A stretch of DNA of 64,000 nt from a virus. The DNA lies in IMG/VR virus record IMGVR_UViG_3300045988_119573, positions 82,089 through 146,088 of that record; one strand, written 5' to 3'. The translations under genes were made by a program, and so were the position numbers. This document shows positions 2,430 through 59,423 of the stretch, one piece after another (the stretch's first letter is position 1; every line of letters starts with the position of its first letter). Below the pieces are notes generated by a model. That model was given only the letters and a program-made list of their open reading frames with translations. It was not told where the DNA came from and did not search any database.

Positions 2430-3420
2430 CTATTCCTCCATACTATGATCATCTACATGAACATATCTGCTCTTAATCTCTGCCGTACGTCCTTGATTCC
2501 AGAACTGGGTGCCGACGTATCCACATGATCGTCTGGCAACATTCATCGTATTCTGATCTCTGTTACCACAATTTGGACATTCCCAGATTAATTCCCCATC
2601 AACATCAAGAATGCTAATTTCTCCATCATAACCACATTTCTGACAGTAATCACTCTTTGTATTTAACTCTGCATACATGATATGATCATAAATAAATTTC
2701 ATAATCTCAAGAACAATATCTGTATTCTTTGTCAAGTCTGCACATTCTACATAACTAATTGCACCGCCTGGACTTAATTCTTGAAATTTGCTTTCAATAT
2801 CAAGTTTTGTGAAAGGATCAATCTTTTCAAATACTGGGATATGATATGAATTTGTAATGTAATCACGATCCGTAATTCCTTCTACAATACCAAATCTTTT
2901 CTTTAAGCATTTTGCAAATTTATATGTAGTTGACTCGATTGGAGAGCCATACACACTGTATGCTAATCCTTCAGAATCTTTCCATTCATTACACTTATCG
3001 TTTAATCTCTGCATAACTTTTAAACCAAATTCCTGTTGAATAGAATGAGATTCGCCAGTCATGTATTTTACACATTCATATAACCCTGCATACCCAAGAG
3101 AAATCGTTGCATAACCATTTTCTAATAGCTTGTCAATTTTTTCTCCTTTCTTAAGTCTTGCAAAGCATCCATGCTGCCACAAAATAGGTGCAACATCAGA
3201 AGATGTCCCTTTTAATCTCTTGTACCTACATTTTAATGCCTTGTGACATAACTCTAATCTTTCATCTAAAATCTTCCAAAACGCTTCCTTGTCTTTCCCA
3301 GAAGACAAAGCTACATCTGGAAGATTGATTGTTACAACCCCCATATTGTATCTTCCGTAATATTTAGGTTTACCATTTTCATCTAAATATGGAGTTAAAA
3401 ATGATCTACACATGTTTATG
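2430..3420 (-). CDS. nrdD: Anaerobic ribonucleoside-triphosphate reductase, exon 3 (C-terminal part)
   Basis: CRSFLTPY..., NMGVVTINLPDVAL, C-terminal Zn ribbon CQKCGY...CPNCG and glycyl-radical motif RRSCGYVGT. No plausible start/RBS: the frame stays open upstream of the first Met. 5' boundary approximate. Confidence 0.8.
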
Positions 3421-4021: not shown

Positions 4022-4430
4022 CACTGCTCCGAGTCAGACTATATCTTTACCCTCGTTATACGTTAGGTGAGAATATATAATTCTCAAAAGTAACTATATT
4101 ACTTTGTAGATGGCACTTCCCTACAATGAATTCCACATTATAGGTACAGATTTCATAGGCATATATTATTACTTAGCCTGTATATCTTAGTCGTTTGACC
4201 TTTATAAAAATTTCTCTTTATCCTTGGCACTGGATTGCTCTTATCCGTCCCAATGTTTGCAAATTATATATAGTATGATCAACTCTTTTGCTCGAAAGCA
4301 CCGATAAGAGTTCCCCAGTTAGCATAACTTCTATCACCATTTCCTATGATCCTAACCGTAAGTTATACACCCTAGATTTCTAGGTTCACCATCTGTTCAC
4401 TAACATATTTCTATGTTAGGCAGCCATTTG
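4022..4430 (-). ncRNA. Group I self-splicing intron 2 in nrdD (ORF-less, ~409 nt)
   Basis: Minus strand carries R element GGTCAAACGACTAAGATA and S element AAGATATAGTCTGACTCGGAGCAGTG at the 3' end (consensus R GUUCAACGACUA, S AAGAUAUAGUC). Exon 1 ends ...AACGGU, intron ends ...CAGUG, and the join gives in-frame ...NTNGQ|APFLSV... Confidence 0.75.
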
Positions 4431-5288
4431 ACCGTTTGTGTTGGTCATACTATTTACTTGATAGTTGAATGTCTGAACACTATCTTCGATTTCTTTCTTT
4501 AAATCTTCCTTAGCGTATTTTTCAACTAAATCTTCTGTAAAGCCACGTTTTCTATATTTATCAACATAAATATTATAACTATCTCTTACAAATGGGGCTA
4601 AATGTGTTAATGTAATTGTTGCACCGCCATATGTAGAAGATGTAACTGCTGTAACAATCTGCGTTGCAATTGTTGTTGCCGTGATTAATCTATGGGGTTT
4701 TTCAATCATTACCTCATTAACAACTGTGCCATTCTGTAGCATATCTTCAAGATTAATTAACTCGCAATTTGTAAGTGCTTTCTGCCCAAAATAATCCACA
4801 TCATGGAAATGCAAGATACCTGTATCATGAGCCTGTACGATTTCTGGTGGGAGTAAATATCTGCGAGTCATATCTTTGCACACAATACCTGCCATATAAT
4901 CTCTCTGTGTTGTTACAAGTTTTTCATTTTTATTAGAATTTTCAGTATTCCAATATTTACTGTCTCCACTAAGAAGATCTGAAATTTCTGCATCAATAGT
5001 ATTTTCATTCTCTCTCTGAAACTCTCGAACACTGCGATAACCTTCATATGCTTTTGCAGTTAATTCCTGCCCTTTCTCAACAAGCTTTTTGAATACCATT
5101 GCTTCAATTGTAGAAATGTCAATTTCTTCTGGTAATTTACTGCAATCATTTTCGATTTCTCTTGCAATCTGTTTTGCAATATTTTCCTTAATTAATCCAG
5201 ATCCATTTTTCATTGCTTTCATAATCGCTGTGTAAATTTTGGTCTTGTCGAAATCTACAACAGTACAATCTCTTTTAATTACTTTCAA
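4431..5288 (-). CDS. nrdD: Anaerobic ribonucleoside-triphosphate reductase, exon 1 (N-terminal ATP-cone part)
   Basis: MKVIKRDCTVVDFDKTKIYTAI (ATP cone); the track ORF runs 4 codons into the intron before a TAA. Confidence 0.8.
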
Positions 5289-5523: not shown

Positions 5524-6097
5524 CTTCCTTTGTTGTCGCTCCTTCCGTGTCTCTAATCTGTCTTTTGAATCTCTCTAATTCAGCCATAATATTTAAACAA
5601 GTCATAGACAAACTTCCTTCATTATTAATAACTGCGTCGCATAAATCATAAGCTTCTTCAAAAGCAGATTCGTCTTTTTTCATTCTTTCATCAATTGCAT
5701 CACTTGTATCTCCACGATCTTTCATTCTCTGAATACGTGTAGAACTTGGTGTATCAATACATAATGCCAAGATATGTTTCTTATGATAATTTTCTTTTAA
5801 CTGTTTTAATCCTGGAACATCAACTACATATACGTCTGCATCATCACACTGACTTTCTGTAGCACAGTACCAATTGCCAGTGTAATGATTCTCTGCAACC
5901 TTGCCTGTAATTCTTGAATACTGGGCTAGATTTACATATGTATGATCATCAAGCTTATCTGTTCGCTTCTCTCTAGTGGTATATGATCGTAGATATTTCA
6001 GACCATAAATGTCTTCCAGATACTTCGCTGAGACACTTTTGCCTGCTCCAGATCGCCCCACCAGAGCGATTAAAACATTACTTTTATCTCCTACCAT
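5507..6097 (-). CDS. P-loop nucleoside monophosphate kinase (guanylate-kinase-like / dNMP kinase)
   Basis: Walker A LIALVGRSGAGKSVSAKYL and SYTTREKR...D..Y resembling the GMP-kinase S-x-TTR motif; sits in the nucleotide-metabolism module. Confidence 0.5.
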   Translation of the reverse strand: MVGDKSNVLIALVGRSGAGKSVSAKYLEDIYGLKYLRSYTTREKRTDKLDDHTYVNLAQYSRITGKVAENHYTGNWYCATESQCDDADVYVVDVPGLKQLKENYHKKHILALCIDTPSSTRIQRMKDRGDTSDAIDERMKKDESAFEEAYDLCDAVINNEGSLSMTCLNIMAELERFKRQIRDTEGATTKEVDQNN

Positions 6098-7057: not shown

Positions 7058-7897
7058 TTATGGCATTTCATTGTAAATTTTGCTAACATCATCTAATAAT
7101 TCTTTTGGCAAATATCTTTCTAAAAGCTCATTCGAATTATCAAGTGTTTTCTTATAGAAATCTTCTGCGATACCACCGCCAATAGCAGCAATCGTATCTG
7201 TGTCACATGGCAAAGACAATACATTTCTTAAGAATGATTCATAATCTTCGCTCTCTAAGAAACATCTGATTGCCACAGGAACACTATCTTGAACTGTCGC
7301 AGACCAAACATAATTCTTTCTATAATCATCGAGTGGTCGATCAACACCATATGTATATTGACTGGATGGATAACTTTTTAATGCATATTGATAAATTTCT
7401 TCTTTTGATTTACCCCATAGCGCCATAAAAGAACAGCCTGTTACAATCGATGCACCTTTGTAAGATTCTGAGTGGCGATGCGTTTTCTCACATGTCCATT
7501 GTGCTAAATCTATGTAATAACTCAATACGTCTGGACGATCAGCAAACCCATTAAAATACATTGTGATAGGCGAAATTCTCATGGCACATCCATTACCAAA
7601 GCTTTCATTAACACGACTACCATCATCGTGTAACCAGTCTTCGAACATTGCGCCATATCCCGTACCAGGATATTTCTTGCCATATTCTAAGTAGAACTCC
7701 CAAGGCTCTTTGATATGTTTGTGTTCATCGTCATCATCCAACAGCCACATTCCTGTTGCAATACTGAGAACTGTATCATCTGTAAATTTACATTTATCTG
7801 TAAACAATTCACAGTTCTTCCAATCTAAATCGTGAGGTCTGCGGAACTCATATTGAGAACCGCAAATATCTCCTAGAATCGCTCCAATTAAAGCCAT
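7058..7897 (-). CDS. ADP-ribosylglycohydrolase (ARH/DraG family)
   Basis: N-terminal GAILGDICGSQYEF and C-terminal DTDTIAAIGGGIAE, both signature metal-binding motifs of ADP-ribosyl-[protein/DNA] glycohydrolases. Confidence 0.8.
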   Translation of the reverse strand: MALIGAILGDICGSQYEFRRPHDLDWKNCELFTDKCKFTDDTVLSIATGMWLLDDDDEHKHIKEPWEFYLEYGKKYPGTGYGAMFEDWLHDDGSRVNESFGNGCAMRISPITMYFNGFADRPDVLSYYIDLAQWTCEKTHRHSESYKGASIVTGCSFMALWGKSKEEIYQYALKSYPSSQYTYGVDRPLDDYRKNYVWSATVQDSVPVAIRCFLESEDYESFLRNVLSLPCDTDTIAAIGGGIAEDFYKKTLDNSNELLERYLPKELLDDVSKIYNEMP

Positions 7898-30250: not shown

Positions 30251-30780
30251 TCATTAAGCTCAAGACCACATTCGTCTCTCTTAGCAAAATACTCAGATTC
30301 AACTTCATGGCGAACATCTTTATATAATTGATCATAATATGATTTCTGTAATTTGAAAAATGCAACCTTTAAATCATTTTCATAAAATTTACCCTGCTGT
30401 CCATTTTGAATTGTGCGATATTCAATTTCTGGATGGTTATATGAAACTGAAATAATTGATCCATTATCACCAATGCTCATATGAATTCCTCCATTGACAT
30501 CCGCCCGATATTTAACCCTGTGTCCGTCAATAAACCCATATGGATGCCACTCATAATCATCAGGAATAACAGTTGGTTCAATAACATCAAAATATTTCTC
30601 TAATTCATCTCCAGACATCACACCAAGATGCACTCCATTCGCACCAAATCTAAAATTGATAACATTTTCATCTGTATCAATCTTCACAATCTCACATACC
30701 TCTCCAAGATTATCGAAATATCCCATTGGCTTCTTTAATTTAATCTTATAATCTGTAGTTAATTCATTAATATTAATCAT
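30244..30780 (-). CDS. Hypothetical protein
   Basis: 178-aa ORF. Confidence 0.4.
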   Translation of the reverse strand: MININELTTDYKIKLKKPMGYFDNLGEVCEIVKIDTDENVINFRFGANGVHLGVMSGDELEKYFDVIEPTVIPDDYEWHPYGFIDGHRVKYRADVNGGIHMSIGDNGSIISVSYNHPEIEYRTIQNGQQGKFYENDLKVAFFKLQKSYYDQLYKDVRHEVESEYFAKRDECGLELNEW

Positions 30781-31811
30781 ACTGCCACCTTACCTTTCTT
30801 GCTAAAATGTTCATTCCATGCATCGACCGCTTCTTGCTGATCAGCGGTTAGAGGATCATTGAATCTTTGCAGCGCTTGTACGATTCGTCCATTTTGTATT
30901 TCAATCGTCACTAACGATTTGTCTGGTTCTTTTACTCTTCTTAAGAACATAATGTGGCATTCGCCATCAATGACTCGATCTATGTAACTTGCCACACAAT
31001 TATTCTGCTGTACCGCTTCGTCTTTAATATCTTGAGTGGAGTCTGGATAAAAGAATCTCAGTCCTTTATATGTAAATTCGTATTCTTTATTAATACGGCT
31101 CTTAAAGACTTCTTCCGAAAATTCTTTTTGTAATCTTTTGTAATTTCTTGTGACAATATCCATTGTTGTTTTGAAATGTCTTGGATATCTATCAAATTTG
31201 TGACTGATTGCGTCCATCATACGGGCATAATCACGCAATTCTCTGAGCAACCAATTTATACTATTGGTAGCAGCTTCAAATGTAATTATTCTATCTATAT
31301 AAACAAACACATCTGCAAGATTATAGCCATAATCCTGATTTAAAGCCTCCAAAATTTTTGTGAAACGATATCTATGATTATCCTCGAAGAAATTTATTAA
31401 ATATTCTTTAGTTAATGTCATATACTCTGTCTGCAAAATCGTTTGTACATAATCTGGATACATCTTATAAAAATCAACAAAATCATTACTTAACAATCGT
31501 CTATTCTTCACACCAAGACAATAATTCCTTAACCATTTTGGTACTTCATTGATTGAATATTTAAAATCTTCTGTGACTTGTTTATGTGTAAATCCTATAG
31601 CAAAGAACTGCTCACATACCGAATATTTACTTGCATATTTAAACAATGTTCCTAAATTATAATCAATGAAGCCCCATGTAGTTCTTCCCATTTCACAATT
31701 TTTTCGCCAGTTTACATATTTTAAAAACTCTGCATAATGTGGATCGGACACAAATAATTTATCCAATTCATCAGCCGAATGCCCAGACAGAATATTATTT
31801 AAAGCTTTCAC
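30777..31811 (-). CDS. PcfJ-like protein (tentative)
   Basis: C-terminal NCVASYIDRVIDGECHIMFLR...TIEI resembles the conserved PcfJ C-terminal (HCVGSY...) region; GTG start. Confidence 0.4.
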   Translation of the reverse strand: MKALNNILSGHSADELDKLFVSDPHYAEFLKYVNWRKNCEMGRTTWGFIDYNLGTLFKYASKYSVCEQFFAIGFTHKQVTEDFKYSINEVPKWLRNYCLGVKNRRLLSNDFVDFYKMYPDYVQTILQTEYMTLTKEYLINFFEDNHRYRFTKILEALNQDYGYNLADVFVYIDRIITFEAATNSINWLLRELRDYARMMDAISHKFDRYPRHFKTTMDIVTRNYKRLQKEFSEEVFKSRINKEYEFTYKGLRFFYPDSTQDIKDEAVQQNNCVASYIDRVIDGECHIMFLRRVKEPDKSLVTIEIQNGRIVQALQRFNDPLTADQQEAVDAWNEHFSKKGKVAV

Positions 31812-35724: not shown

Positions 35725-36678
35725 TCACACTCCTAACACATATTTCTCACTTCTAAATCCAGCTGCATTCGGATGACCGCCACCACCATATTTCACAGCA
35801 AGCTCATACACATTTACTTTATCCTGTTCTGCGGATCGCAACTGATATTCCCACATACTTCCATTGAACGAAAAACCAATGAACATATCATATTTAGAAG
35901 CATCAATAGATTCAAAGAAATCAGAATTGATTAATGCTCGGTTGATTGCATAGACTTTATGTCCCTCAAATATGGTTTCAAAACCATATGCTCTAAGATA
36001 TTGTTCTGCATTTGCTGCTAAATACTCAATAATTGATAAGCCATCTGCTATCATATCACCAATAATTTTTGCTGCTTCATAAATTCCTTGATCTTTATTT
36101 AACGTGTTTAGCAATGGACTTAACGCATCAAAATCATACGATTCAAATGCATAGTGAAATGCTTTTACGAATTGTTTTGACGTTTCACCAAAATAAAATG
36201 TATCCCACATGGCTGTATATTCTGCCAGTTTTGGATAATCTGCTTTATATTTATATATATTGAGTAATCTTTTTACATTTTTCTCATCCGTCCTCTCAAT
36301 TTGCTCCCAATTTTCATCACACATATATTTAAAATATAACCATGTCAAATTCGCTCCTGAAATACCCGCTCCAGTAATTCTGATTCCTTTTACATCACAC
36401 TTGAAATCTTTATACGCTTCAATCGTAGACTGATGATGGTCGATCCAAAATACATTCTTTGTAATACTGAGCAACTGCCACATCTCTTCTGGCTCAATAC
36501 TGTAGTCTACAATAAACACAAATTCATCCTGCTCAATGTCATGAAACGGGAATTTCATACCGTAATTAATTTTTCGGAAGTCCTCTGGTTCAAATGCTAA
36601 ACCTCGCTGTTCACAAGCTTTTCTGACGTAGAATCCAGACACGATTCCGTCTTGATCAACATGATAAAAACACTTCAT
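35725..36678 (-). CDS. DHH/DHHA1 phosphoesterase (NrnA-like nanoRNase / pAp or cyclic-nucleotide phosphodiesterase family)
   Basis: HVDQDGIVSG (motif I/II), FVFIVDYS, WIDHHQ (DHH), C-terminal GGGGHPNAAGF (DHHA1 GGGH..AAG). Confidence 0.7.
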   Translation of the reverse strand: MKCFYHVDQDGIVSGFYVRKACEQRGLAFEPEDFRKINYGMKFPFHDIEQDEFVFIVDYSIEPEEMWQLLSITKNVFWIDHHQSTIEAYKDFKCDVKGIRITGAGISGANLTWLYFKYMCDENWEQIERTDEKNVKRLLNIYKYKADYPKLAEYTAMWDTFYFGETSKQFVKAFHYAFESYDFDALSPLLNTLNKDQGIYEAAKIIGDMIADGLSIIEYLAANAEQYLRAYGFETIFEGHKVYAINRALINSDFFESIDASKYDMFIGFSFNGSMWEYQLRSAEQDKVNVYELAVKYGGGGHPNAAGFRSEKYVLGV

Positions 36679-36962
36679 TATTTTTCCTCCTTTATCTGCT
36701 CACCTTTATTAATTGACTCAACATATATTTCCCAGTCATCTGCATATACATCTTCCGCAAGAGGTATCCAAACTTCTGCGTTTTCTTTGTCAAATAAAAA
36801 AATAATTGAATCTGGCTTATATTCACCCATATCATTACACTCAAAATAAACATTAGTTAATTCTGACGAATAAATTTTCAAATACTTTTCCTTTCCCCAA
36901 ATGCCTCTTCTTATAGTAGTTTTGTCTTTTTTTATTGCAGTCATTGCTTTTATAAAATTCAA
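36678..36962 (-). CDS. Hypothetical protein
   Basis: 94-aa ORF. Confidence 0.4.
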   Translation of the reverse strand: MNFIKAMTAIKKDKTTIRRGIWGKEKYLKIYSSELTNVYFECNDMGEYKPDSIIFLFDKENAEVWIPLAEDVYADDWEIYVESINKGEQIKEEK

Positions 36963-36970
36963 TTAATTAC

Positions 36971-37282
36971 TCACCTCTTCCTTTTACTGTTAAAATCCCA
37001 TCCTTGCTCAACCCAATCATTTGCGAAAATATCCTCTTGTGTAGGCAACCATCCCAATGTTATAACTCCATTTTGGTCTCTACATAAGAGTGGTTTCATT
37101 TTATATTTTTTATCAAATGGAATAATCTCATTTAATTCTTCTTCGCACATCATAAACACATAATCATAAGTTGTTCGTGTCTTCTTCCACGAACTACGAC
37201 GATACAATTGTCTTGGATTAATTTCCATATTTTGCATCATCATTTCAAACGACATTCCTTGTTTCTTTTTTGCCATTGGCAT
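36971..37282 (-). CDS. Hypothetical protein
   Basis: 103-aa ORF. Confidence 0.4.
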   Translation of the reverse strand: MPMAKKKQGMSFEMMMQNMEINPRQLYRRSSWKKTRTTYDYVFMMCEEELNEIIPFDKKYKMKPLLCRDQNGVITLGWLPTQEDIFANDWVEQGWDFNSKRKR

Positions 37283-37754: not shown

Positions 37755-37774
37755 TTTTGTTTAAATTCCTTTAG

Positions 37775-37872
37775 GTTTTTGTTATTTTTTTTTATAATTG
37801 CCAAACACATTCGATAAATCAAGGGTAAATGTGTTGGTTTTGTACCTATGTTATTTTTTATAGTTGTCAAAC
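37775..37872 (-). CRISPR. Mini-CRISPR array 1: degenerate 32-nt repeat, 30-nt spacer, 36-nt repeat variant A'
   Basis: GTTTTTGTTATTTTTTTTTATAATTGCCAAAC | acattcgataaatcaagggtaaatgtgttg | GTTTTGTACCTATGTTATTTTTTATAGTTGTCAAAC. Strand not established; assigned here to match cas12f. Confidence 0.6.
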
Positions 37873-38013
37873 ATCAAATAACATAAATCCGACAATATAA
37901 CATAGATTTTAGTGAGTGCTATAGTAAGCCTCACTTTTGGCGTACTCAATATTATTTGAGCAGAATATTTTATATACTCCCAAAACACACCAAATATTTT
38001 AAAATTTTATTAA
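37873..38013 (-). ncRNA. tracrRNA-like module 1 (anti-repeat + conserved hairpin + CCCAAAACACACC motif)
   Basis: GACAATATAACATAG is complementary to repeat A' (CTATGTTAT...TTGTC); hairpin AGTGAG-N13-CTCACT followed by TTTTGG; motif CCCAAAACACACCAAATATTTTAA. Confidence 0.4.
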
Positions 38014-38183
38014 GTTTATGATGTAAAATTAATTAGGCATCAAACTACATTTTTGCATTTTTTCTTTAATTGCTTCTGCCGTTTTGTACCTATGTAAAAT
38101 TAATTAGGTATCAAACAAAGCATTAGCAGAAGAAAGAGGCTTGCACAGTTTTGTACCTATGTAAAATTAATTAGGTATCAAAC
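38014..38183 (-). CRISPR. Mini-CRISPR array 2: truncated repeat, 35-nt spacer, repeat A, 31-nt spacer, repeat A
   Basis: Two identical 36-nt repeats GTTTTGTACCTATGTAAAATTAATTAGGTATCAAAC (38081..38116, 38148..38183) plus a truncated copy ...ATGTAAAATTAATTAGGCATCAAAC; spacers tacatttttgcattttttctttaattgcttctgcc and aaagcattagcagaagaaagaggcttgcaca. Confidence 0.7.
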
Positions 38184-38318
38184 CTCAAATTCTTTTGTCC
38201 AATTTTGTTACCTAATTTACATAGATTTTAGTGAGTACCTTACGATCTCACTTTTGGCATAGCCACAACTCTGTGACCAGAAATTTTAATTGGAATAAAA
38301 TTTCCCAAAACATGCCAT
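38184..38318 (-). ncRNA. tracrRNA-like module 2
   Basis: TTACCTAATTTACATAG is complementary to repeat A (CTATGTAAA[ATTAA]TTAGGTAA: 16/17 pairing with a 5-nt bulge); hairpin AGTGAG-N11-CTCACT plus TTTTGG; degenerate CCCAAAACA motif. Confidence 0.45.
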
Positions 38319-38420
38319 GTATTTTATTTGTGTAATTTTTTATGGTTCTCAAACACCCATGCACTGGATCAGCGAGCCAAGATCGTTTTGTATTTGTGTA
38401 ATTTTTTATGGTTCTCAAAC
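38319..38420 (-). CRISPR. Mini-CRISPR array 3: repeat B', 30-nt spacer, repeat B
   Basis: GTATTTTATTTGTGTAATTTTTTATGGTTCTCAAAC | acccatgcactggatcagcgagccaagatc | GTTTTGTATTTGTGTAATTTTTTATGGTTCTCAAAC. Confidence 0.65.
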
Positions 38421-38567
38421 CTCAAATCTTAATTATGTATACAATACAAAACTTTACGTTCTGCTTCATTACACAAATTTTAGTGAGTGATTTCTCCTCA
38501 CTTTTGGCGTAACCATTTTATTTATGGCTGAGGGAGTACCGAACTCCCCCCAAAACACACCAAATAT
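38421..38567 (-). ncRNA. tracrRNA-like module 3 (its 3' part overlaps the cas12f stop codon)
   Basis: CATTACACAAAT is complementary to repeat B (ATTTGTGTAAT; 11-13 nt); hairpin AGTGAG-N9-CTCACT plus TTTTGG; extra GGGAG-TACCGAA-CTCCC hairpin; motif CCCCAAAACACACCAAATATTTAA ends at the cas12f TAA. Confidence 0.4.
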
Positions 38568-57729: not shown

Positions 57730-58476
57730 CTATAAAATCCTAATAATTTGTTCGTAAATTGCAATCGCATTATCTTCTGGAAAGTTCTGGTTCACATGCA
57801 TATGCCCAAAGAACCATTTTTGATAAATCACTTTGTCTTTTATTTGCTGTAAATAATCCGTTAACTTGTCAGATTTGTACACTCCTGATCCTTGATCCAT
57901 TTGTCTTAAAACAGATGTGTATGGACTATGTGTAATAACGTAATCTACTTGGAAGTCATTTTTCTCTAAATTCATCACACCTTCTGCCATCTCTTTATCA
58001 GATGGCAATTCTTCTTTCCACCAGCTCACATGATTAATCCTAAACATTTTGTCATAATCTCTGTACCATTCATTAATTCTTGGATCGTCTGGCTCTAAAA
58101 TTCCATCTTGCACATCATGGGAACTGGCACCGCCAAATGTAAAGAATTTCTTTCCTTGAATTTCAAACACCTGTCCACGCATAAGATGAAATACAGAGTC
58201 TTTGATCTTGTGAATCTTTCCGCCACACCATTTCTCTACAGGATATTGATATAAGCGATCATAATTTTCATGGTTCCCACATACAAACAAAGTAGTAAAT
58301 GGTTTGTTGTCCAACCATTCCAGATTATGTCGTTCTTCTTTTGTGTCATGCCACAATCCAAAATCTCCGCAAATGATCACGTAATCATCTTTAGTTAACT
58401 CTACTCCTTCTGGGAAAGAATGACTGTTTAATCGAGTCATCCAATCCCCATGCGTATCTCCTGTTACAAATATCAT
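57730..58476 (-). CDS. Calcineurin-like metallophosphoesterase
   Basis: GDTHGD, GDFG, GNHE, GHMH motifs in canonical order. Confidence 0.75.
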   Translation of the reverse strand: MIFVTGDTHGDWMTRLNSHSFPEGVELTKDDYVIICGDFGLWHDTKEERHNLEWLDNKPFTTLFVCGNHENYDRLYQYPVEKWCGGKIHKIKDSVFHLMRGQVFEIQGKKFFTFGGASSHDVQDGILEPDDPRINEWYRDYDKMFRINHVSWWKEELPSDKEMAEGVMNLEKNDFQVDYVITHSPYTSVLRQMDQGSGVYKSDKLTDYLQQIKDKVIYQKWFFGHMHVNQNFPEDNAIAIYEQIIRIL

Positions 58477-59423
58477 AAAATAACTCCTTCCAGCAGCTCT
58501 TTTAGTGCCTGCATATTGTCCTCATGTACCCTATCATTTTGATCTGCATCCTCCTTACCAGTCTCATAAGCACACTTGATAATCTCCATAACTCTATCAT
58601 AACTCACATTAATAACATTTTCCTTTAATCCGTTAAATGCTCCGCTGATAATATTCTTGTACGTCTGAGCAATATCATCAAATAACACATGAGTTTCCTC
58701 TTCTGTAATTGTAGCATATAAAAACGTCATTGCAGGACTACTATGGTTCAATAATCGCATAAGTGTATACAATACATTCTGATCATCTTTATGATCAACA
58801 AGTGTCCAATACACAAAGTTCTTTCGTAGTGTATGTGTACCAATGTTATCCTCAATTCCAACTGCTTTAGCACCTTTTTTAACAAAGTCTAAAGCATTTG
58901 CTTCTGTCATGTGTCCTGATCCAGATTTACATGTTCCGAAAACATAATCATCCATTGGCACTTCGCCATCAATCTTGACATCATATTTAGTTCCTGCGAC
59001 AGCTTCAAAGAAAATATCCACTGCTTCGGTTACTAAGTCGTTAAAGTATACAGTTCTAAATTTCTTTGTTTTCTTTTCCTGCTTACGAGTCTTATCTTCC
59101 AATAAATCGCCCCATTTGAGTCTAACAATATCAGAGATACGATATGCTGTATTGTTTCCAACTGTAACCAAAAGATTATTTCTGGCAGCTACATATCGTT
59201 TGTACTCTGTGTACGATTTATCAATCTGGTCTCTAAAATATGCATTAAAGGCTGCAAATTGTTTTCTGTCTTTGATCGGATACACTAAAGATGATACGCC
59301 TTTTTGTTTGTTAGATCGAGTCCATTTAGGACTTCCATCCTTACGTCTTTTAATCTTTGTTTCAGATTCTTCTGCGTTATTATTGTTTACTGTTTCAATA
59401 ACTTCAAACTGTGTTGCTGCCAT
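58473..59423 (-). CDS. int: Tyrosine site-specific recombinase / integrase
   Basis: RISDIVRLKWGDL (Arg box), HTLRKNF, LLNHSSPAMTFLYAT (H...Y box II). Confidence 0.75.
   Translation of the reverse strand: MAATQFEVIETVNNNNAEESETKIKRRKDGSPKWTRSNKQKGVSSLVYPIKDRKQFAAFNAYFRDQIDKSYTEYKRYVAARNNLLVTVGNNTAYRISDIVRLKWGDLLEDKTRKQEKKTKKFRTVYFNDLVTEAVDIFFEAVAGTKYDVKIDGEVPMDDYVFGTCKSGSGHMTEANALDFVKKGAKAVGIEDNIGTHTLRKNFVYWTLVDHKDDQNVLYTLMRLLNHSSPAMTFLYATITEEETHVLFDDIAQTYKNIISGAFNGLKENVINVSYDRVMEIIKCAYETGKEDADQNDRVHEDNMQALKELLEGVIL

Follow-up and report, generated by a model that had tools for sequence, protein, structure and literature searches.

A probable Cas12f-like CRISPR system with three guide modules in a large gut-metagenome phage, and its matches to a plasmid family and a small phage

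We have analyzed a stretch of 64,000 nucleotides (nt) from a virus (IMG/VR record IMGVR_UViG_3300045988_119573, positions 82,089 to 146,088; hereafter the window), in which an earlier note had singled out four sequences as spacers of a phage-borne CRISPR (short palindromic repeats that are clustered and regularly interspaced) system. Each of the four is present exactly once in the window, with no chance matches by shuffled versions, and all are bounded by 36-nt repeats, which marks them as true spacers. The note had described a single run (37807-38384); a repeat search and a reading of the region in fact resolved three mini-arrays (A, B and C), each with its own variant of the 36-nt repeat, which are adjoined and separated by scaffold blocks of about 130-150 nt conserved among the three units. 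Along the plus strand, arrays A and C consist of a degenerate repeat, one spacer and one repeat, and array B of a degenerate repeat followed by two spacers with a repeat after each (Table 1). The sequences listed in the note are the reverse complements of the guides, because the functional sense is the minus strand, and its description of the spacers as richer in G+C than the phage fits the fourth one (38355-38384, 57%) but not the other three (33%, 29% and 42%, against 34% for the window). The assignment to a phage-borne CRISPR system has stood up, with a Cas12f-family nuclease gene next to the arrays, repeats and identifiable protospacers. We consider it likely that the region provides the guide RNAs of a type V-F-like (Cas12f) CRISPR system that is self-contained, belongs to a large gut-metagenome phage and is directed against a plasmid and a small phage.

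The nuclease (543 amino acids, aa) is encoded by an open reading frame (ORF) that abuts the repeat region, and all three mini-arrays lie directly downstream, at most 800 nt from the gene. It matched the Pfam families Cas12f1-like_TNB (1.5e-17) and OrfB_IS605, the NCBIfam model guided_TnpB (151 bits for a cutoff of 100, 4e-44) and, among solved structures, 8hr5 (8e-59), 9nzr/9nzo (9e-59), AsCas12f (7wju, 3e-43) and Un1Cas12f (~1e-24). The 8hr5 entry, a 497-aa protein deposited as 'Transposase', is presumably CnCas12f1 of Clostridium novyi. The RuvC triad (D315/E413/D495) is intact and aligns with that of active Cas12f enzymes, and the zinc ribbon (C460, C463, C479, C484) is intact as well; together with the length these are the features of a compact effector (about 400-700 aa, TnpB-like RuvC, zinc ribbon and triad). 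Other identities were tried and rejected. The nuclease was not taken as Cas12f2 because its score with CRISPR_Cas12f2 (107.9 bits) is below the curated NCBI cutoff of 450; no curated Cas12f1 model appeared in its NCBIfam hit list. Cas12p was matched only through 9jfs (E=3e-5), and its protospacer adjacent motif (PAM) is GTN, against TNRN here. As regards an IS200/IS605 TnpB, the gene is surrounded by phage genes and genes for Tad2-like proteins, neither TnpA nor transposon ends were observed, and the guides are multiple, variable and bounded by repeats.

The arrangement is conserved in relatives. Seven IMG/VR contigs encode the nuclease at 91-100% protein identity, and all seven have the same order: nuclease, scaffold C and array C, scaffold B and array B, scaffold A and array A, and a conserved 55-aa ORF. 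Two of them hold the spacers of the window, one with a single A-to-G change in spacer A, and the other five hold different spacers, from one to three per array. The window and these relatives (eight genomes) gave a pooled set of 24 different spacers, with a mean G+C content of 39%. Spacers that vary among strains, in arrays (here three mini-arrays) adjacent to the effector, are what is expected of a type V-F locus. That the genome of the phage is large follows from a metagenome contig of 211 kb (L021), in which the arrays of the window were also found. At least 689 homologues of the nuclease were found at E<=1e-30, many of them on contigs of 140-233 kb. The same consecutive scaffold-array modules are present in a relative with 69% identity; at 54% identity there are two modules downstream of the nuclease gene and one upstream, and at 49% a single one. 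In addition, array B of relative L003 has a shortened spacer of 18 nt (6054-6071), and array C of L006 has a 62-nt "spacer" (5810-5871) whose halves match two different sites of the small phage described below, which suggests two spacers fused through repeat loss.

The guide modules are read on the minus strand, as indicated by the terminal repeats, the fold energies, the G-U pairs and the side of the PAM. The degenerate terminal repeats are the 3' ends of the arrays in this sense. Scaffolds with their first repeat folded at -53.7 kcal/mol (C, z=-5.95), -49.3 (B, z=-5.45) and -43.5 (A, z=-5.86) on the minus strand, against -37.7, -41.0 and -31.2 on the plus strand, that is, 8-16 kcal/mol more stable across the three modules. 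The consensus structure contains many G-U pairs, which would be A-C mismatches if read on the opposite strand. A first-sight idea of type II (Cas9-like) repeats on the plus strand was dropped given the nuclease, the fold energies and the PAM side. All modules share a predicted fold made up of a closing stem around two hairpins, a further hairpin with the conserved pair GUGAG/CUCAC, a long duplex of anti-repeat and repeat that is closed by a 20-60-nt linker, and a free UACAAAAC tail before the spacer. In an alignment of 18 sequences 97.9% of the cells were paired, against 33-49% when the partners were slid, and compensatory changes were seen at nine pairs, four of them within the anti-repeat:repeat stem; these represent few independent events, because they are mostly between the three paralogous modules. 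The anti-repeats of modules A and B are selective for their own repeats, with duplex energies of -20.5 kcal/mol for the cognate pair against -5.4 and -8.6 for the non-cognate ones in B, and of -16.3 against -4.4 and -10.3 in A. A conserved GUUUUGG in the multiloop, near the 5' end, is complementary to the CAAAAC tail. In distant relatives both sides change together by eye (GAUUUUAC with UAUAAAAC; UAUUUCG with AUGAAAC), which is suggestive of a pseudoknot as in the guide RNAs of Cas12f and TnpB. The guide core of Cas12f enzymes is described as a conserved stem 1, pseudoknot, stem 2 and 3' guide (PMC12255294, PMC12216341). For type V-F a guide RNA of ~200 nt with an anti-repeat is expected. No Rfam family matched the scaffolds.

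A search of metagenome contigs with a merged pattern of the two array B spacers led to matches of spacer B1, found at 31/31 positions in four contigs and at 30/31 in three more, within unique coding sequence. The contigs bearing it are of ~12.9-13.0 kb, and three have terminal direct overlaps (55, 79 and 141 nt) like those of assembled circles. They encode a SprT-like protein (the B1 target), a ParA ATPase, a Rep-like protein (HTH_36/DUF6017, replaced by Rep_3 in some variants), a serine resolvase, a 403-aa protein of unknown function, an HNH/NUMOD4 endonuclease and a radical-SAM protein, and no virion genes were found on them. From its gene content and contig ends we regard this ~12.9-kb circular target as a plasmid-like element. 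Its sequence had no counterpart in PLSDB, among the deposited phages or in IMG/VR; one of the contigs is labelled human gut metagenome, and the 403-aa protein had no relative in viral contigs and, among genomes, only one contig of a metagenome-assembled genome. Arrays A and B contribute 18 spacers to the pooled set, and 14 of these match the plasmid panel. Matches over the full length were obtained for L2_B3 (30/30), L4_A (32/32), L4_B2 (30/30) and L5_B1 (30/30), and nearly full ones for L5_A (30/31), L6_A (29/31), L6_B (27/31) and L3_B (17/18); L2_A1, L2_A2 and L2_B1 match diverged plasmid sequences. For spacer B2 of the window there is a 20-nt exact core together with peptide similarity by tblastn (AEAIKEKMQK against AEAIKEKIER), located in a small ORF that lies upstream of Rep on the plasmid. 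The A-to-G variant of spacer A in the sister phage L007 corresponds to the plasmid base. The plasmid protospacers lie on both strands, inside as well as outside coding sequence, a spread to be expected if the DNA is to be destroyed.

The radical-SAM gene of the plasmid (L025, 10703-11932, 409 aa) gave a partial match to the PADLOC profile pVip (prokaryotic viperin; 6e-10, profile positions 9-94 of 257) that covers the radical-SAM core. We rejected it as a defence gene, the match being too weak and confined to that core. A viperin-like gene as the reason for the phage attack on the plasmid is possible but unproven, and the plasmid is a candidate carrier of something relevant to the phage, of which this gene with its weak viperin-like similarity would be one example.

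Spacer C, in turn, matches at 29/30 positions six IMG/VR contigs, and at 28/30 a seventh one, all reached through its distal 20-mer. The longest of these contigs (~18.3-18.6 kb) encode scaffold, major head, large terminase, SPP1-type portal and tail-fibre proteins, and this target is thus a small phage. The protospacer is inside the gene of a 534-aa ResIII/DEAD helicase. Other array C spacers match the same phage, L2_C at 28/30 and L4_C at 27/30. A stretch of 91 nt with ~94% identity, just downstream of the SprT-like gene, is common to the small phage (L051, 1240-1330) and the plasmid (L020, 984-1074), hinting at DNA exchange between them; both are probably found in the same host.

To judge these matches against chance, the pooled spacers were compared with the two target panels at a threshold of at least 20 identities, which was reached by 18 of the 24 real spacers and by 1 of 1,200 shuffled ones. 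None of the seven spacers of the relatives at or below 69% identity matched the plasmid panel. Within the 64-kb window and the flanks of the relatives no self- or cross-targeting match exceeded chance (<=16 nt), and INPHARED and PLSDB gave with the pooled spacers only A-rich chance matches at E=4. One 21-nt exact match of spacer A to a viral contig with 47% G+C (L011 405-425, L012 400-420, ~400 nt from the contig end) was discarded as fortuitous: the distal 9 nt do not align, the flank ATTC has no PAM, no other spacer matches there, and about 0.05-0.1 such matches are expected by chance (our own estimate for an assumed collection size).

Reading the protospacers in the minus-strand sense, T at position -4 and a purine at -2 were found in 12/12 independent plasmid sites, with G never at -1 and no signal on the 3' side; TNRN is found at 14.6% of random positions. 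The flanks of the small-phage sites are TCGT, TTAA, TTAA and CTGT (T at -4 in 3/4, purine at -2 in 4/4). We therefore adopt 5'-TNRN as the working PAM (T in 15/16 and R in 16/16 independent sites), located 5' of the protospacer on the non-target strand as in type V-F systems. The earlier note had anticipated that protospacers would reveal the role of the system and a candidate PAM, as they have. It was right to expect competing phages among the targets, with one spacer matching the small phage, although the plasmid family matched by the other three was not on its list; its T-rich PAM survives as a 5' motif with a nearly constant T at -4, without a run of T. Where a protospacer is perfect but for a single mismatch, that mismatch is in the third nearest the PAM, at position 2 or 5 for B1 (contigs L015, L019 and L022) and at position 9 for C (L047-L053), and in this small sample would fit escape mutations.

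The two targets are sorted by array. The six spacers of the close family in array C, the array next to the nuclease, all match the small phage only, three of them strongly (W_C, L2_C and L4_C) and three through diverged partial matches (L3_C, L5_C and L6_C). The last of these has matches at two sites apart from each other, which is what a fusion of two spacers by repeat loss should give. The first spacer of the 69% relative also matches the small phage. On the other side, the 14 matched spacers of arrays A and B match the plasmid only. This partition (6/0 against 0/14) has a p of ~2.6e-5 by Fisher's exact test, or of 3e-4 to 1.5e-3 with stricter counts. Ordinary acquisition should not sort invaders by array, and the partition is a surprising property. 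Perhaps a single Cas12f uses three diverged, partly orthogonal scaffolds tied in cis, with each array dedicated to one enemy, although we hold this idea only tentatively. In that case the cis-joined scaffold-repeat-guide units would be living examples between the single guide RNA of TnpB and the split trans-activating CRISPR RNA (tracrRNA) and CRISPR RNA. Candidate sorting mechanisms are the refreshing of arrays from different donor arrays by repeat-guided recombination, or an acquisition specific for repeat or leader. If the sorting reflects mechanism, it would represent a previously undescribed organisation of CRISPR memory. The strict sorting may also hint at a new way in which systems without Cas1-Cas2 gain their spacers.

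Table 1 Features of the nuclease and guide-module region (positions in the window)
Feature	Position	Strand	Evidence or target
Cas12f-family RNA-guided nuclease, 543 aa	38568..40199	-	Pfam, NCBIfam and PDB matches, motifs
Scaffold C (tracrRNA-like), from the nuclease stop codon to the anti-repeat pairing with repeat C	38421..38568	-	Fold, covariation
Repeat C, full copy, GTTTGAGAACCATAAAAAATTACACAAATACAAAAC	38385..38420	-	
Spacer C, guide GATCTTGGCTCGCTGATCCAGTGCATGGGT	38355..38384	-	Small-phage helicase gene 29/30, flank TCGT
Terminal repeat of array C, 3' end degenerate	38319..38354	-	
Scaffold B (tracrRNA-like), anti-repeat matching repeat B	38184..38323	-	Fold, cognate duplex energy
Repeat B, first copy, GTTTGATACCTAATTAATTTTACATAGGTACAAAAC	38148..38183	-	
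Spacer B1, guide TGTGCAAGCCTCTTTCTTCTGCTAATGCTTT	38117..38147	-	Plasmid SprT-like gene 31/31, flank TCGA or TCAA
Repeat B, second copy	38081..38116	-	
Spacer B2, guide GGCAGAAGCAATTAAAGAAAAAATGCAAAAATGTA	38046..38080	-	Diverged target homologue only, flank TTGT
Terminal repeat of array B, 3' end degenerate	38010..38045	-	
Scaffold A (tracrRNA-like), anti-repeat matching repeat A	37873..37998	-	Fold, cognate duplex energy
Repeat A, full copy, GTTTGACAACTATAAAAAATAACATAGGTACAAAAC	37837..37872	-	
Spacer A, guide CAACACATTTACCCTTGATTTATCGAATGT	37807..37836	-	Rep_3 plasmid variant L040 24/30, flank TCGA
Terminal repeat of array A, strongly degenerate	37771..37806	-	

In the mechanism that we propose, the nuclease gene and the three consecutive guide modules after it would be expressed from the same minus strand, and the anti-repeat at the 3' end of each scaffold would pair with the first repeat of its own mini-array of one to three spacers. 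The processed RNA would have a layout like that of Cas12f and TnpB, with the guide at the 3' end, and its ACAAAAC tail could form a pseudoknot with GUUUUGG. Once loaded with a guide the nuclease would recognise and cut double-stranded DNA that has a 5'-TNRN PAM; arrays A and B would lead it to the ~12.9-kb circular plasmid family, and array C to the ~18-kb small phage. Effectors of type V-F cut double-stranded DNA as homodimers with one guide RNA. The phage would benefit from the removal of a competitor phage and of a plasmid that may hinder it.

Viral mini-arrays of one or two spacers that borrow the Cas proteins of the host are well documented (PMC11656645), and no adaptation genes were found in the window, so that the arrays might be orphans working through a host CRISPR-Cas system, next to an unrelated TnpB-like transposon gene. 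We find this quite unlikely. Each array is joined to a scaffold whose anti-repeat co-varies with the repeat of that same array, the stop codon of the nuclease gene is where scaffold C begins, and gene and modules are kept together across 54-100% protein identity. Furthermore, the 5' PAM fits a Cas12-type enzyme, nothing resembling TnpA or transposon ends was seen, and orphan mini-arrays are defined by repeats identical to those of a host CRISPR array and by the lack of a cognate effector in the virus, whereas here both effector and scaffolds are viral. The system could also bind its targets without cutting, silencing genes or blocking replication like Cas12m, Cas12k and the regulators derived from TnpB. 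Several miniature Cas12 and TnpB descendants are RNA-guided repressors (PMC11656645; 10.1101/2023.11.30.569447), and some protospacers are near the Rep and partition genes of the plasmid. This too is unlikely, with a catalytic triad and zinc ribbon that are intact and aligned with those of active Cas12f enzymes, and targets on both strands, in coding and non-coding DNA and in structural genes of the phage, without promoter bias. Finally, the spacers could be fragments shared through DNA exchange among the large phage, the plasmid and the small phage rather than guides for attack, and the 91 nt common to the latter two at 94% identity do speak for exchange in the community. However, the matches are exactly of spacer size and bounded by repeats, they involve at least 16 different target sites of which all but one have the same 5' motif, and nothing else in the 64-kb window or the flanks of the relatives matches the targets; we regard such an origin as highly improbable.

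Several observations weigh against the self-contained Cas12f-like system that we favour, or against parts of it. A perfect protospacer is known for one of the four window spacers (B1) only: spacer A has an imperfect match, B2 a diverged target homologue, and spacer C differs at position 9 from each of the seven small-phage contigs. Because every known target has this mismatch, the searches with its proximal 20-mer in viral contigs and 22-mer in genome contigs gave no match. The small-phage site of L2_C has C instead of T at -4 (CTGT), and the site of the 69% relative is flanked by TTCA. The anti-repeat of module C is short and not selective for its own repeat, and since the candidate pseudoknot is invariant in the close family, its support comes from the two changes seen by eye. 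No standout promoter-like or terminator-like signal appeared in a scan of the guide region, and no Cas1, Cas2 or Cas4 was found among the neighbours of the locus or the Cas1-sized ORFs of the 64-kb window.

The window has its long ORFs all on the minus strand, and its remaining part is a phage replication module with genes for DNA polymerase, helicase/exonuclease V, NAD-ligase and RecJ-like and DnaB-like proteins. None of the deposited phages was similar to it. Just downstream of the arrays two neighbouring small ORFs, 36678-36962 (-) and 36971-37282 (-), match the Pfam family Tad2-like (Thoeris anti-defence 2; 6e-12 and 4e-8), and the Cas12f locus therefore adjoins anti-defence genes. The anaerobic ribonucleotide reductase NrdD is found in two ORFs ~1 kb apart, 2430-3413 (-) and 4416-5288 (-), with the N-terminal ATP-cone and C-terminal glycyl-radical parts; its presence suggests an anaerobic host and the split could be due to an intron, intein or homing-endonuclease insertion. 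The only Rfam hit of the window is a tRNA at 45367-45504 (-) that spans 138 nt for a model of 71 positions and may hold an intron or large insertion. There are also a tyrosine integrase-family protein (58473-59423, -), a PcfJ-like protein (30777-31811, -) and an ADP-ribosylglycohydrolase (7058-7897, -). The PcfJ-like family is often found on plasmids, and the integrase-family protein makes one ask whether the large phage might be temperate, or plasmid-like.

Type V-F systems carried by phages, and CRISPR systems that phages direct at other mobile elements, are already known; what look new are the triple layout with private scaffolds and the partition of the targets. A full-text search of the literature gave no report of naturally repeated tracrRNA-array modules, an absence that is not proof. 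The locus adds a gut example of mobile elements in conflict through CRISPR, here with a plasmid as the principal target, and a 543-aa nuclease with a candidate 5'-TNRN PAM and three natural scaffolds may be of interest for the engineering of compact editors and multiplexed guides.

Among characterised systems, type V-F1 Cas12f (8hr5, then 9nzr/9nzo, and AsCas12f 7wju/8dzj) is similar in having a miniature RuvC/zinc-ribbon nuclease (E about 1e-58), a long scaffold of the tracrRNA type that carries the guide at its 3' end, what appears to be the same core layout of the guide RNA (PMC12255294) and a 5' PAM. Unlike Cas12f1, with one tracrRNA and one array, there are here three modules of scaffold plus mini-array, and a linker of 20-60 nt connects each scaffold in cis with its first repeat. 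The PAM deduced here, 5'-TNRN, differs from the T-rich or C-rich motifs reported for the characterised enzymes (for the C-rich ones, PMC12216341), and the nuclease is encoded by a phage with no adaptation genes found nearby. The type V-F variants of huge phages share the large phage genomes, the Cas14/Cas12f-like effectors and the compact arrays, usually without an adaptation module. Their spacers match competing phages, the reported targets being other phages and host genes (Al-Shayeb et al. 2020, PMC7162821). In contrast, most of the spacers found here have their match in a single small plasmid family, with the two classes of target divided among the arrays.

Two further phage systems provide the closest parallel for the conflict itself, both being phage-encoded with spacers concentrated on a non-phage mobile element of the host. 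Seed et al. are said to have described in 2013 one of them, the type I-F CRISPR-Cas of the Vibrio phage ICP1, which reportedly acts against the PLE element. The other is Cas12r of the Thermus Lalka-phage, used against integrative elements (bioRxiv 10.64898/2026.04.20.719267). The present locus differs from both in its Cas12f-like effector and in its targets, an extrachromosomal ParA/Rep plasmid and a small phage, and harm of the plasmid to the phage is only hypothetical in this case. Finally, the protein core is the same as that of TnpB with its omega/reRNA in IS200/IS605 elements (NCBIfam guided_TnpB above cutoff). In contrast to TnpB, the guides here vary, are enclosed by repeats and have PAM-flanked matches in foreign elements instead of at the insertion site of the element itself. 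As in TnpB, a scaffold starts at the end of the nuclease gene and runs in cis into the guide, so that every module might yield a natural single guide RNA with its first guide.

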